Of a stretch of DNA of 64,000 bases, positions 50,484-56,023 are shown piece by piece. The stretch spans positions 10,186-74,185 of the forward strand of contig JBLWVX010000005.1 of the NCBI GenBank assembly GCA_048268245.1, in the 5' to 3' direction. How positions within the stretch are numbered: position 1 is the stretch's first letter; each line of letters begins with the position of its first letter. The position numbers were made by a program, and so were the translations under genes. This stretch comes from Arcobacteraceae bacterium. Its GTDB lineage: Bacteria; Campylobacterota; Campylobacteria; Campylobacterales; Arcobacteraceae. Under the pieces are notes generated by a model. The model was given only the letters and a program-made list of their open reading frames with translations. It searched no databases and was not told the DNA's origin.

Positions 50484-52334
50484 TTATTCCCCGTTTTCTT
50501 TAAAATAATTATATATTAGGTTTGCATCTTTTTCATTTATAACTTCTTTTAATTCTTCAACTGATGCATTTTTAATTTTTTCAAACTCTCCAAAGTATAA
50601 AAGAAGTTTTTTAACTTTTGCTTCACCAATACCTTTTATTTGAAGTAATGAAATCTGTTTATCTTCTTTTCTTTTTTGTTTTTTGTGAAAGTTGATTACA
50701 AATCTATGGGCTTCATCCCTTTGTCTTTGAACAAATTGAAGTCTTTGGTCACTTGTTTTTAGTTTTATATTTCTAATAGATCCATCTTTATGTTTATAAT
50801 GAACTATATCTTTAGCTGCACCTTTAGCTCTATGGGCTTTTGCATCTACTTTTTCTTTTGCAATAGCTATAATGTCAAGGTTTACACCAACAGATTGAAC
50901 TATATCAAAAGCAAGTTTAAGTAGAGTCTCACCTCCATCAATAACCCATAAATCAGGAGCAGGGTTTTTCTCAAAACTATCAACTCTTCTCATTAGCATT
51001 TCTCTCATTTGAGAGTATTCATCTTTTGATTCTAAGTTATAGTGTCTAAAAGCTTTTCTATCAAAAGAGTTTAACTCTTCATTCCAAACAACCATAGCTC
51101 CAACTGTTGCTTGACCCATCATATGTGAATTATCAAAAGACTCAACTCTATAAGGTAATAAAGATAGGTTAAATAGGTTTTTCAATTCATCATAAATCGT
51201 AGTTTGATTTCTACTTGAAACAATTCTAAGAAGCTCATCACAGTTGCTTAAGGCGATTTCTAAAAGAGTTTTTTTCTTTCCTCTTTGAGGTGTAATTATG
51301 CTTATGTTTCTTTCAAATCTGTTTTTTAAGAACCCTTCTAGCTCTTCTTTATCTTCAACTTCTTGAGCTGTTAATACTTCTTTTGGTAAAAGTGGTATTT
51401 CATTGTCATAGTAGTTAATAATAGCTCTTTTATAGGCTTCATTTAAATCTATGTTTGTATTGTTTTCTAAGAAGTCAAGTTTTACAAAATCGTGGGAAGA
51501 AGAAGTTAGTTTACCATCTCTTATAAACATTCTTACAATCACAGCTTTTTTAGTTCCTGCTTTTATAGCAAATAAGTCTAAATCTTCATTTGTAGCTAAA
51601 TCCATACCTGATTTGATTTGAGATTTTTCTATTGTTTTTATTCTATCTCGAAGTTTCATTGCTTCTTCAAACCTAAACTCTTCTGAGTATTGCATCATTT
51701 TTTCTTCTAGCTTTGAAATTAGCTTTGTTTTATTGTATATAAAATTAAGTGCTTCTTCCACTATTTTTCCATAATCAGCAGTTGAAATTTTACCTTCACA
51801 AGGAGCATGACACTTTTTGATTTGATGGAAAAGACAAGCTTCTTTTCCTTTTACACATGATTTTTTTTGTACAAGAGGAACTATCTCATAAATAGAATCA
51901 AGCATATCTTTTGCCCCTATTGAGTAAGGTCCAAAATATTTAATATTTTTGCCTTTATATACTTTTCTTGTTATTTCAAGTCTAGGAAAAAGCTCATTAT
52001 AATCAACCATAATATAAGGATATGTTTTGTCATCTCTAAGAAGAATATTGTATTTAGGTTTTAACTGTTTTATTAAAGAGTTTTCCAAAATCAAAGCATC
52101 ATGCTCATTTGGAACAACTATCCATTCTAAAGATACAACTTCTGTAATCATTTTATAAATTCTAGGACCTAGTTTATCAGATGGAAGAAGTTTTGGAGTA
52201 AATTTGAAGTATGATCGAACTCTATTTTTAAGTACTTTTGCTTTTCCTATATAAAGTAAATGACCATCTTTATCAAAGTATTGATATACCCCAGCATCAT
52301 TTGGTAGTTGTTTAAGTTTCTCTTCTAATTGCAT
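50484..52334 (-). CDS. uvrC: Excinuclease ABC subunit C
   Basis: [47 protein letters not shown]. Confidence 0.97.
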
Positions 52335-52999: not shown

Positions 53000-53902
53000 T
53001 TAATGATAATTTATATAGTAGGGTTGCTCTTCTATTTTTTGACTACCAACATTTTCAAAACCAAGTATTTTTTTTGGTGTCATTAATGGTTTTATATCAT
53101 TGTTATAAAAGATTTTAAATCCACCTATAGCTCTGTTTGTTTGTTCTCTTGCATATAAGGCATTGTAGATTTTAACTTTTACTCCTGCTTGTCCATGTCC
53201 ATCTATATTATAAATTAGTTTTATGTTTTTATAGTTTTTTATATCATCTTTTTGTCTTAACATTCTTTTATGGAACATATGAACTATGATTTTTTTAGCA
53301 GTTTTAATATCATTTTCTTTTAGGTATGAACTTACATACTCTTGAAGTTCATTTAACTCTTTAGCTTTTACATGGCCTACATATTTTCCTGGTGGGTATC
53401 TTCTATGTGTTGGGATTCTAAATTCTGGATCAATAGCTAAGTGTACATTTTCATACTTTAGATATTTAAGAAGTGGTTCTACTGCTTCTTTTGGTGTTTT
53501 TACTGATAATTGAACATCTAAAATTACAGCAAAGTTTTCTTTTCGGGCTCTTTTTATATATTTTAATACTGTTTTTTCACTCATTCCTAAAAGGTAATCA
53601 TTTCTTCTACCTGGGTCTTTTGTTGCAAGGGAGTGAATAATATGAAATGCCATCTTTACTTTAATATTTTTATTAAAAGACTCTAAATCTTTTTTATAGT
53701 ATTTTTGTTTCTCTCTCATTTTAATAACAAGTTCATCAATATTATTTTCTCCTAAAATACCTAAAGATTTACTATTTGGTCTTCCATAAAAGCCAACTAA
53801 AACTTCATTTTTATAGCTTTTTGAATACTCTGTAGTTTTGGCATTTAGTGTATTTAAGAAAAGTAGGGCTATAAGACTTATAAAGCATAGTATTTTATTC
53901 AT
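53000..53902 (-). CDS. Secreted hypothetical protein
   Basis: Signal peptide; motifs GFYGRP..LG.LGE, ILDVQ, HLAIDPEF, NIDGHG. Confidence 0.7.
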   Translation of the reverse strand: MNKILCFISLIALLFLNTLNAKTTEYSKSYKNEVLVGFYGRPNSKSLGILGENNIDELVIKMREKQKYYKKDLESFNKNIKVKMAFHIIHSLATKDPGRRNDYLLGMSEKTVLKYIKRARKENFAVILDVQLSVKTPKEAVEPLLKYLKYENVHLAIDPEFRIPTHRRYPPGKYVGHVKAKELNELQEYVSSYLKENDIKTAKKIIVHMFHKRMLRQKDDIKNYKNIKLIYNIDGHGQAGVKVKIYNALYAREQTNRAIGGFKIFYNNDIKPLMTPKKILGFENVGSQKIEEQPYYINYH

Positions 53903-54030
53903 TTTCTGCCTCGAAAAAAATTATTTTACTTTAAAGTATATTCTAATATCTTGAAATAAAATTTAAAATTTTCTAATAAGGCACTTTACAGTTAAATATT
54001 ATTAGTATTTCATTAAAAAAAGGAAAAGTT

Positions 54031-54726
54031 TTGCCAGGAAGATTAGCTGTATTTGATGATAACTCTTTTAAAGAAGACTCAAAATATTTGATAAAAAATG
54101 ATATGGTAGGAGTTTTACAAAAAAGATACAATATCCCACCAACTACACCTATTCCTGCACTTTTAAATAATGGTAACTATTTATATACTCATTTTGGTTT
54201 TTTACCTTCTTGGGCAAGTTCAAAATCTTCTATGAACATAAATGCAAGAAGTGAGAGTATTTATGAAAAAAAGACTTTTAGAGAAGCTTTTAGATTTAAA
54301 AGATGTATTATTCCTATAAATGGTTTTTATGAATGGCAAATAGAAGATAAAGAGAAAACACCTTTTTTTGTAAAAGACATGAAACATGACTATTTAGGTG
54401 TTGCTGGTATTTGGGATGAGTACTTTGAAGAGCAGTTAAATATGAATATTGTAACAGTAGCTTTAATAACTTGTGATGCAAATGATAAATTAGGAAAAAT
54501 TCATCATCGAATGCCAGTGATTTTAGAGAAAAAAGAGTTTTCAACTTGGCTTAAAAGTGATGACTTAAAAGAAGTAAATTCTCTTTTTAAAATCTATGAG
54601 TCAGAAAAACTAGACCTTTATGAAGTATCAAGTGATGTTAATAAAGTTCTATTTGACAAACCTTCATGTATTCAAAAAGTAGAAAAAAAAGAGTTTGAAC
54701 CTACTGGGCAGTTATCACTTTTCTAA
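54031..54726 (+). CDS. SOS response-associated peptidase (SRAP/HMCES/YedK family)
   Basis: RYNIPPT, INARSE, RCIIP.NGFYEW, IHHRMPVIL, VN; TTG start after AAGGA. Confidence 0.88.
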   Translation: MPGRLAVFDDNSFKEDSKYLIKNDMVGVLQKRYNIPPTTPIPALLNNGNYLYTHFGFLPSWASSKSSMNINARSESIYEKKTFREAFRFKRCIIPINGFYEWQIEDKEKTPFFVKDMKHDYLGVAGIWDEYFEEQLNMNIVTVALITCDANDKLGKIHHRMPVILEKKEFSTWLKSDDLKEVNSLFKIYESEKLDLYEVSSDVNKVLFDKPSCIQKVEKKEFEPTGQLSLF

Positions 54727-55473
54727 AGCTTTAAACCATAAAATCCAAAGATTAGTGCATATCTTTTTATAAGCTTTTAGTTTTTCTTTGTGCTCCTTTT
54801 TTACGTTTTTAAAATACTCTTTTAATAAATACTTTTCTTGTTTTTTGTTTAGCTTATATTCTATACACAAAGCTGCTAAATCAAAAAATCTGTCATTAAC
54901 ACAAGCAAATTCCCAATCAATTAAAAAAGCTTTATTTCTATGAAAAAGTATATTTTTTAGGTTTAAATCATGGTGACATAAAACTAAATCTTTTTTATAC
55001 TTTTTTAAAGTATATAGTTGTTTTAAAGATTGACTAACAAGAGTTTTTGTTTTTTTATCTTTTAAGAGTTTTTTATAGTTCTTAAAATCTTTTTTTAAAT
55101 CATAAGGCTTTTGTTTTATTTTTATAGTATGAAGCTTTTTAAGAGTTCTTATAACTGCTTTTAAATGAGCTTTTTTAAGTTTTTCTTTGTGCTCACCTTT
55201 TATAAAATCACAGATCATTAATGAGTTTTTTTTATCTAAGATATAGGCTTTCGCACCTATATTTCTTTTGTAAGCTTTATTTTGTATTTTAAACTCAGTT
55301 TCTCTTTTTTTCTTTTCTTTATGGGTGTGTTTAAAAACTCTTATACTATAAGTTTTTTTGCTACTTTCTAGTTTGTATATGGTATTGCATACGCCTTGGT
55401 TTTCTAGAAGCTTTACACTTAAAAGCTCTTCACTTTTAAAAAGTCTATACTCTTTAAGCTTTTTGATCTTCAT
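54715..55473 (-). CDS. Choline/thiamine kinase-like phosphotransferase
   Basis: CHHDLNLKNI Brenner motif, IDWE, FDLA. Confidence 0.8.
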   Translation of the reverse strand: MKIKKLKEYRLFKSEELLSVKLLENQGVCNTIYKLESSKKTYSIRVFKHTHKEKKKRETEFKIQNKAYKRNIGAKAYILDKKNSLMICDFIKGEHKEKLKKAHLKAVIRTLKKLHTIKIKQKPYDLKKDFKNYKKLLKDKKTKTLVSQSLKQLYTLKKYKKDLVLCHHDLNLKNILFHRNKAFLIDWEFACVNDRFFDLAALCIEYKLNKKQEKYLLKEYFKNVKKEHKEKLKAYKKICTNLWILWFKALEK

Positions 55474-56023
55474 AATCTTTTTTCCATTTTAAGTATGCTA
55501 CAAATGCAAGAACTGTATAAATTGCAAATAAAATAGCAGTTAGCTTTAAATCTTTTTGAATATAAATATAAATAGAAATAGTATCTATTACTATCCAATA
55601 AATCCAGTTTTCTAGTACTTTTTTTGCTAGCATGTATGTAGAAAATATTGCAAATACAGTAGTAAAAGAATCAATATAAGCAAAATCAGCATGGGTATAA
55701 GTTGCCATGATAAAGCCAAGTATTGAAGATATGATACTTAAAGCTATAATTATTTGTATGTTTTTCTTTATTCCATAGCTAGTAACTTCTAATTCTTTTT
55801 CTTGTAGTTTATTTCCATATCTCCAAGAATACCAACCATAAAGTGCCATAACTAAATAGTATACATTTAAAGCACTATCCATTAGAAGTGCTACATCAAA
55901 AAATATTATTGCATAAATAAGGGTTGAAAAAAATGCAGCTACCCAACACCATAAATTTTGTTTGATAGCAAGAAGTAGGTAAGCAATAGATAAACTCATA
56001 GCTATTGCTTCCCAATTTGACAT
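55454..56023 (-). CDS. pnuC: PnuC-family vitamin transporter
   Basis: WCW, YGWYSW, DSFTT, LENWIYWIVID. Confidence 0.88.
   Translation of the reverse strand: MSNWEAIAMSLSIAYLLLAIKQNLWCWVAAFFSTLIYAIIFFDVALLMDSALNVYYLVMALYGWYSWRYGNKLQEKELEVTSYGIKKNIQIIIALSIISSILGFIMATYTHADFAYIDSFTTVFAIFSTYMLAKKVLENWIYWIVIDTISIYIYIQKDLKLTAILFAIYTVLAFVAYLKWKKDYEDQKA

Follow-up and report, generated by a model that had tools for sequence, protein, structure and literature searches.

Within a 64,000-nucleotide stretch of DNA from a marine Arcobacteraceae bacterium (assembly GCA_048268245.1, contig JBLWVX010000005.1, positions 10,186 to 74,185 of the forward strand; the whole stretch is called the window here), the gene at positions 54,031 to 54,726 encodes a SRAP-family protein in which proline takes the place of the catalytic cysteine at residue 2. 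It is a conserved natural variant without the thiol needed for thiazolidine, and so would be unable to make the protective thiazolidine crosslink, as a preliminary description made from the sequence had supposed. We consider it fairly probable that this Pro2 SRAP is an abasic-site lyase of single-stranded DNA (ssDNA), which cuts instead of shielding. In a wider reading, which we regard as possible if somewhat short of probable, the SRAP scaffold would have ceased, repeatedly and independently, to be a shield and become an ssDNA-specific lyase of abasic sites that is tethered to the clamp, through a single change of Cys to Pro, as a convergence on Fpg/Nei-like Pro-iminium chemistry in an unrelated fold, and in some genomes beside a protective copy. 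The features of the gene are the following, with their equivalents in YedK obtained by alignment:

54020..54024, forward strand: AAGGA, a ribosome-binding-site-like sequence, 6 nucleotides 5' of the TTG.
54031..54726, forward strand: SRAP-family gene (PF02586), 231 amino acids, TTG start, the sole SRAP match in the genome.
54034..54036, forward strand: Pro2 (CCA), at the catalytic Cys2 position of the SRAP family, the predicted N-terminus after Met removal.
54040..54042, forward strand: Arg4, ssDNA contact equivalent to YedK Arg4 (role from extracts of PMC6821365).
54241..54249, forward strand: Asn71-Ala-Arg73, equivalent to YedK Asn75 and Arg77.
54325..54336, forward strand: Phe99-Tyr-Glu101-Trp102, with a pocket residue (YedK Trp103) and the catalytic Glu (YedK Glu105).
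54463..54474, forward strand: Leu145-Ile-Thr147-Cys148, with a pocket Leu for the usual Ile (YedK Ile147); Thr147 is YedK Thr149.
54502..54516, forward strand: His158-His-Arg160-Met-Pro162, equivalent to YedK His160, Arg162 and pocket Pro164.
54709..54723, forward strand: C-terminal QLSLF, a putative sliding-clamp-binding motif that fits the QxxLF consensus (extracts of PMC12926913).

The start, TTG CCA GGA AGA (M-P-G-R), can be read directly at 54031-54042. Since this TTG is the earliest ATG, GTG or TTG in the open frame and AAGGA lies 6 nucleotides before it, Pro is residue 2, and at many of the Pro loci an in-frame stop immediately before the start codon makes an alternative N-terminus impossible. 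Contigs of two public runs, of which one may be the DNA's own source, reach across the start; each differs by two letters, neither of them within the first codons, and homologues share Pro2, so the earlier judgement that a sequencing error is unlikely holds. A sequencing error or a mis-called start was dismissed because the start letters agree in the public contigs, the Pro codon varies synonymously and stops precede the starts. Met before Pro is cleaved by methionine aminopeptidase, and a gene for this enzyme was found in the genome. Contigs of RNA libraries gave a 202-nucleotide near-identical piece and a 603-nucleotide piece from a relative, although such contigs cannot demonstrate transcription.

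In the Pfam scan the protein matches SRAP alone (residues 1-206 of 231), and PF02586 is covered at model positions 1-214 of 214 with an E-value of 3.5e-54 and 184 bits against a cut-off of 27.1. By profile, by fold and by Asn71, Glu101 and His158, it belongs to the SRAP superfamily PF02586. The Pro2 gene is the one SRAP match of the 2.68-Mb genome, which is 99% complete, and the homologues with species names, at 89-91% identity, are from Arcobacter.

Among the best 120 of 3,509 homologues, 116 start with xPGR, three have MPGR behind a called extension, one is truncated and none has Cys. Pro2 is present in all 50 Arcobacteraceae genomes read, of the 64 with SRAP, where it directly follows ATG, TTG or GTG and is written as CCA 24 times, CCT 21, CCC 5 and CCG 1 (a tally of 51 rows that includes two duplicated loci and omits L009, whose frame reads LPGRL). 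The ratio of nonsynonymous to synonymous substitution rates (dN/dS; Nei-Gojobori, 49 genes) to the two nearest loci is 0.09 and 0.12; for 903 pairs in the dS range of 0.05-1.5 the median is 0.25. The Pro2 SRAP gene is under purifying selection and is no quirk of one strain; the strain-unique, decaying copy that the preliminary description had set beforehand as the outcome that should speak against it was not found. That the protein is a decayed or non-catalytic relic, or the product of a mis-called start, is very improbable and largely refuted: the gene is patchy in the family (64 of 184 genomes and 9 of 22 genera, with none of 44 genomes in one genus) and two of its copies seem damaged (by stops in G377 and by truncation in L044), but purifying selection, the synonymous variation of an invariant Pro codon and the invariant catalytic set stand against it. 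Decay of the gene was rejected on these same grounds. In a sample of the phylum, SRAP occurred in 6 of 301 genomes, the two complete ones outside Arcobacteraceae being MCGR, and among the best 150 of 20,447 representatives Pro2 was found in two and Cys2 in most others.

Apart from residue 2, the catalytic residues are intact as first described, with both GFYEW (Glu101) and HHRMP (His158) found. Arg4, Pro37, Asn71, Arg73, Glu101, Trp102, Thr147, His158, Arg160 and Pro162 are present in 170/170 Campylobacterota Pro rows, a redundant set, and Trp61 in 168/170. Of the YedK set for ssDNA binding (R4, P40, W67, W68, R77, T149, R162; residues for binding and catalysis as given in extracts of PMC6821365 and PMC9436759), the protein keeps R4, P37, W61, R73, T147 and R160, while the position of W68 holds Ala, which is also the commonest residue there in the bacterial Cys set. 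The AlphaFold model has a mean predicted local distance difference test score (pLDDT) of 95 and a predicted template modelling score of 0.90, with a pLDDT of 61 in the final block, which agrees with a flexible segment around QLSLF. All 21 chains found in the fold search with Z of at least 8 are SRAP structures, and the first residue of the model, Pro2, aligns with residue 2 of YedK and HMCES. The root-mean-square deviation (rmsd) is 2.4 both to the YedK crosslink structure 6nua (Z 25.7, 210 aligned residues) and to HMCES 5ko9 (Z 27.0, 215 aligned), and over the YedK/HMCES structures 6NUA, 6KCQ, 5KO9 and 6OOV the ranges are Z 25.7-27.0, rmsd 2.3-2.5 and 208-215 aligned. What the protein shares with them, beside the fold and the N-terminal position of residue 2, is Gly3-Arg4, Asn71, Arg73, Glu101, Trp102, Thr147, His158, Arg160 and Pro162; it differs by Pro for Cys2 and thus no thiol for thiazolidine, by the pocket Leu for Ile, by F-G (Phe55) for W-G and by the QLSLF tail. 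The nearest solved structure both by sequence (E 1.2e-28) and by fold (Z 28.6, rmsd 2.1, 215 aligned) is BT_1218 of Bacteroides thetaiotaomicron (2F20), a structural-genomics protein that has 27% identity to the Pro2 SRAP and is described in extracts of PMC3765255 as Cys-type. The fold matches listed include no structure of Fpg/Nei, which by itself rules nothing out.

The current model of HMCES and YedK rests on the Cys2 thiol, which converts a strand-breaking intermediate into a protective lock. According to extracts of PMC9436759, the N-terminal amine of YedK reacts with the opened sugar to give a Schiff base, after which the ring is closed by the thiol. As there is no beta-thiol at residue 2 of the Pro2 protein, thiazolidine is chemically excluded, and the protein lacks the Cys2 by which thiazolidine crosslinkers are defined. 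In the same extracts, YedK C2A forms a Schiff base that can be trapped by borohydride and cleaves DNA, 25-fold more slowly without Glu105, while formaldehyde-capped YedK, in which Cys2 is turned into a thiazolidine ring, does not crosslink and shows strand cleavage that needs Glu105 and His160. This capped Cys2 is, we infer, the sulfur analogue of proline and therefore the nearest existing proxy for Pro2. Because C2A and capped YedK both cleave abasic DNA, we judge strand cleavage to be the most likely outcome for the Pro2 SRAP. The authors of the capping experiment, in those extracts, read the cleavage as following a ring opening driven by Glu and His with the N-terminus unreactive, so that cutting need not use the Pro; both routes, ring opening and Pro-iminium, end in a nick. 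YedK C2A (8D2M) and capped YedK thus resemble our protein in having a SRAP site with Glu and His and without a free thiol, and in the capped form also in a five-membered ring at residue 2 as in proline. They are laboratory forms that cleave abasic ssDNA, engineered or chemical states, whereas the Pro2 SRAP is natural, probably recurrent and under purifying selection.

The proposed reaction would begin with the removal of Met1, by which Pro2 would be exposed at the Cys2 position where the model places it. Arg4, Trp61, Arg73, Thr147 and Arg160, all observed, would bind ssDNA as in YedK, and Glu101 with His158, also observed and with a role known from YedK, would open the abasic sugar to the aldehyde. 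With no thiol for ring closure, beta- or beta,delta-elimination would follow; its likeliest route is by a Pro-iminium like that of Fpg/Nei, the alternative being elimination straight from the opened aldehyde. In Fpg and Nei the amine of an N-terminal Pro is the nucleophile at the abasic site and acts by the iminium route, the N-terminal proline of Fpg having reportedly been treated by Zharkov in 1997. The likeness to Fpg/MutM and Nei lies in this N-terminal Pro as candidate amine nucleophile for abasic-site cleavage, but the present protein has the SRAP fold, no Fapy-glycosylase, H2TH or zinc-finger domain and no sign of a base-excision pocket, and its preference for ssDNA is predicted. It is not a member of Fpg/Nei, though it may work alike.

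As the last step, the QLSLF end would likely hold the protein on the sliding clamp, either at forks or in repair gaps. The exact QLSLF end is present in 95/170 of the Campylobacterota Pro rows and a QxxLF end in 151/170 (hand count), while a loose clamp-motif tail occurs in only 5 of the 2,177 long frames of the genome. QxxLF is given as the clamp-binding consensus in extracts of PMC12926913, and the C-terminal motif probably tethers the SRAP protein to the clamp. Two further proteins end alike: the first open reading frame of G000:C11, RNase HII-like by eye (GIDEAGRGP start), ends in QKSLF, a clamp-motif-like end, and a 337-amino-acid frame on C6, with no Pfam match, ends in QASLF.

The preliminary description had called for a survey for a Pro2 clade. 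Pro2 SRAPs were indeed found, in about nine phyla and thus much more widely than that description supposed, and a single clade is rejected. The survey scanned species-representative genomes for a DNA pattern of xTG-Pro-[Gly/Ala]-Arg with two SRAP motifs and gave at least 119 stretches; among the matches listed 91 were SRAP and 28 were not, and after 8 Cys genes with a chance upstream match were dropped, 83 Pro2 genes were left. By record title, and among the matches listed, they come from Campylobacterota (Arcobacteraceae, Sulfurimonas, Sulfurovum), Chloroflexota (Anaerolineales), Pseudomonadota (Rhodobacteraceae group, Hyphomicrobium, Thiotrichaceae, Sulfuricella), Verrucomicrobiota, Bacteroidota, Planctomycetota, Nitrospinota, Dadabacteria and Caldisericales, most being metagenome-assembled. 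A viral collection gave 4 pattern matches, none with Pro, for a pattern that requires W-G and is blind to the Campylobacterota Pro clade.

A FastTree phylogeny of 268 rows, built with the first four residues taken out, requires residue 2 to have changed to or from Pro 14 times, strong branches forcing 4 or more of these changes, and an IQ-TREE phylogeny of 46 rows (hand-picked and unrooted, from a quick search without a mixture model) needs 8, at least 5 of them forced. A single Pro clade is rejected by the approximately unbiased (AU) test with p-AU of 2.2e-5, and the swap from Cys to Pro therefore likely recurred in bacteria. A single origin of Pro2 was rejected by this test, while one origin with many reversions is indistinguishable without a root. 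The Campylobacterota Pro forms make up one clade, with support of 96-99, beside Cys forms, and in Anaerolineales, where 96 genomes had a match and 50 loci were read, 49 of these loci are Cys and the Pro forms are nested among them. In the Rhodobacteraceae group a distinct SRAP paralogue is found in 17 of 121 genomes (xPGR in 15, broken in 2); 16 of the 17 carriers have a second SRAP match, and in the two genomes in which this second copy was read it is MCGR. A Pro copy alongside an MCGR copy suggests a distinct job, and such genomes offer a built-in comparison. This paralogue (L339-L355) is the most rebuilt Pro form: it is shorter, at about 205 amino acids, the V-N segment at the C-terminus is missing, the DNA-wedge loop contains a basic insert (GRxNARGRP), and HxRMP is replaced by HxRM[G/A].

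In a metagenome sample, proline is the commonest of the residues that replace Cys2. A metagenome control scan was made for SRAP genes with ATG and a second codon without a middle G, by which Cys, Trp, Arg, Gly and AGY-Ser are excluded, and it gave at least 120 stretches; among the matches listed, SRAP genes accounted for 42, which included 5 Cys genes with a match upstream. Counted without duplicates, the non-Cys rows number 35, of which 14 have Pro, 8 Tyr, 7 Ser and 3 each Phe and Thr. An early stop was found in 7/11 Tyr/Phe rows against no Pro row (8/14 Pro rows run past the fetched DNA), and since Tyr and Phe are also one base from the Cys codon, these rows resemble errors or pseudogenes. 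The two full-length Thr2 rows are both without the catalytic Glu and His. Among the matches listed, and as far as the aligned rows indicate, the substitution most often retained with a whole active site is Pro, which lies two or more base changes away from Cys. The Thr2 group (MTGR; metagenome loci L233, L247 and L254), probably a non-catalytic ssDNA-binding subfamily judging by its residues, resembles a Pro2 group (L260, L269, L281 and L300) that keeps Glu. The Ser2 loci L216 and L250 (MSGRFYL) keep Glu and His and have E-A-P for the N-A-R motif, and L186 and L193, with Asn, Glu and His all kept, look intact.

The pocket of the thiazolidine ring in YedK is formed by Trp103, Ile147, Thr149 and Pro164 (extracts of PMC6821365), for which the equivalents here are Phe99, Leu145, Thr147 and Pro162. 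At 36 positions the 202 Cys rows show at least 85% conservation. Departures from the Cys consensus in three Pro clades make up 7/9 cells at the three variable pocket positions and 13/99 at the other positions, while in four Cys groups the values are 1/12 and 2/132; the comparison is descriptive, and positions 145 and 162 had been seen before the pocket was defined. The bigger changes are in the two Pro clades other than Campylobacterota.

Cys148, near this pocket in sequence, brings in a quite improbable alternative, by which the Pro-iminium would be trapped by the Gly3 backbone amide (as an imidazolidinone) or by Cys148, which would yield a stable crosslink and leave the usual protection in place without a thiol at residue 2. 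Cys148 is present in 158/170 Campylobacterota, 21/21 Rhodobacteraceae-group and 3/4 Anaerolineales Pro rows against 16/202 Cys-type rows, and prolinamides are able to capture aldehydes. However, Cys148 follows Thr147 in a beta-strand of the model and so probably faces away from the pocket, deeper branches of the same clade have Thr at position 148, and YedK C2A has the same Gly3 amide yet makes no stable crosslink. As a stand-in thiol, Cys148 was put aside as unlikely on account of its beta-strand placement and the Thr of the deeper branches.

Several points weigh against a lyase. The cleavage by YedK C2A has a rate constant of 0.05 against 1.7 for the Schiff base and is thus far slower (extracts of PMC9436759). 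In the Campylobacterota Pro clade, only 1/3 of the pocket positions is changed, by a mild Ile to Leu, and a phylogeny-aware independent-pairs test for co-change of pocket residues found no signal, with 4 pairs only. Xth, Nfo and an Nth-like enzyme are already encoded in the genome, and Fpg/Nei (PF01149) is found in 0/184 Arcobacteraceae genomes, with or without SRAP. The chief doubt is a biological one: HMCES prevents double-strand breaks, and cutting of ssDNA at a fork would risk this very harm. The Pro form is moreover the only SRAP in Arcobacteraceae and in the one Anaerolineales Pro genome searched whole, which, together with a umuD-umuC-SRAP locus of Nitrospinales, fits a drop-in replacement that keeps the old role.

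Such a role could be played by a protein that binds abasic ssDNA tightly, either non-covalently or by an iminium that reverses quickly, and obstructs AP endonucleases as well as error-prone polymerases with little cutting and no lasting crosslink, its proline ring occupying the pocket filled by the thiazolidine ring in YedK. We think this unlikely, but it is the main rival of the lyase. It agrees with the Pro2 gene as sole SRAP of its genome, with the one Pro gene right behind umuD-umuC, with the nesting of the Anaerolineales Pro forms inside Cys orthologues, with the clamp-like tail being kept, with the small pocket change in several isolated Pro forms, and with the non-covalent hold of YedK on an abasic analogue, for which extracts of PMC6821365 give a dissociation constant of 0.17 uM. 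On the other hand, both published thiol-less YedK states cleave with Glu and His, which are invariant here; a pure binder could drop these residues, as the Thr2 variants did; and the presence of the Pro form beside a Cys copy, as seen in the Rhodobacteraceae group, speaks against redundancy. We keep to the lyase as the probable reading of the Pro2 SRAP.

The genomic context was read from the nearest 66 of 145 and the nearest 91 of 139 called neighbouring genes. One repair gene lies close by in the window:

50484..52334, reverse strand: uvrC, two genes from the SRAP gene.

Among 28 Campylobacterota loci, uvrC is adjacent and divergent in 6 and recD2 directly upstream in 2, while no repair gene is among the scanned neighbours in 20/28; the same is true of 25/27 other loci, the remaining ones being one umuD-umuC-SRAP and one SRAP-topoisomerase IB. 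In the first of these (L108:2559-4915, Nitrospinales), umuD, umuC and the Pro2 SRAP are consecutive on one strand. These neighbours bear on another improbable explanation, that the substrate is a different one and the protein works on DNA ends that are already broken, trimming or capping them (3'-unsaturated aldehyde, 5'-deoxyribose phosphate), or on junctions of single- and double-stranded DNA in excision gaps, and not on abasic sites inside ssDNA. The uvrC and recD2 loci would suit it, and as Fpg/Nei has no match in the family, which does have an Nth-like enzyme, an end-cleaner with delta-elimination could help. Against it, most loci have no repair gene among the scanned neighbours, the ssDNA-binding residues are unchanged, and Xth and Nfo, both encoded, are able to clean 3' DNA ends. 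YedK itself reacts with 3'-aldehyde lyase products (extracts of PMC9436759), which is in favour of this explanation.

The repair set of the genome consists of Xth, Nfo, the Nth-like enzyme, a second helix-hairpin-helix protein, two uracil-DNA glycosylase matches and a Y-family polymerase. Two proposals were rejected: that the Pro2 SRAP replaces Fpg/Nei, since PF01149 is missing regardless of SRAP and there is no complementation pattern, and that it is linked to the Y-family polymerase, which is present in 158/184 genomes, genera without SRAP included. An SOS box was likewise set aside: the LexA DNA-binding domain had no match in the genome, the three S24 matches are unlike a umuD beside a polymerase, and the 110 upstream nucleotides of 52 rows, inspected by eye, share no motif.

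Cys2 of SRAP is called 'absolutely conserved' in extracts of PMC3765255, the paper by which the family was defined. A full-text literature search gave no title or abstract opening pointing to a Pro2 SRAP, subscription papers being mostly beyond its reach, and the alignment supplement of PMC3765255 might contain Pro2 rows. A natural and probably recurrent Pro form under purifying selection means that the SRAP family is useful even without the lock. If the Pro2 SRAP is a lyase, its chemistry would be convergent with that of Fpg/Nei, and it might serve as an ssDNA-specific reagent with which abasic sites are mapped. In that case labels in databases, 'abasic site processing protein' for instance, would mask opposite chemistry, and bacteria would have a repair route in which abasic ssDNA is broken on purpose, whether at forks or in gaps.

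In the window, the reverse strand at 54715-56023 carries a choline/thiamine-kinase-like gene, which overlaps the SRAP stop by 12 nucleotides, and a PnuC-type transporter, probably a vitamin salvage pair; the aminoglycoside-kinase matches of the kinase-like gene are far under the cut-offs. On the other side, at 53000-53902 on the reverse strand and divergent from the SRAP gene, lies a gene for a secreted-looking protein of 300 amino acids with no match in Pfam or NCBIfam, and unannotated open reading frames of like size adjoin SRAP in L023, L041 and L042.
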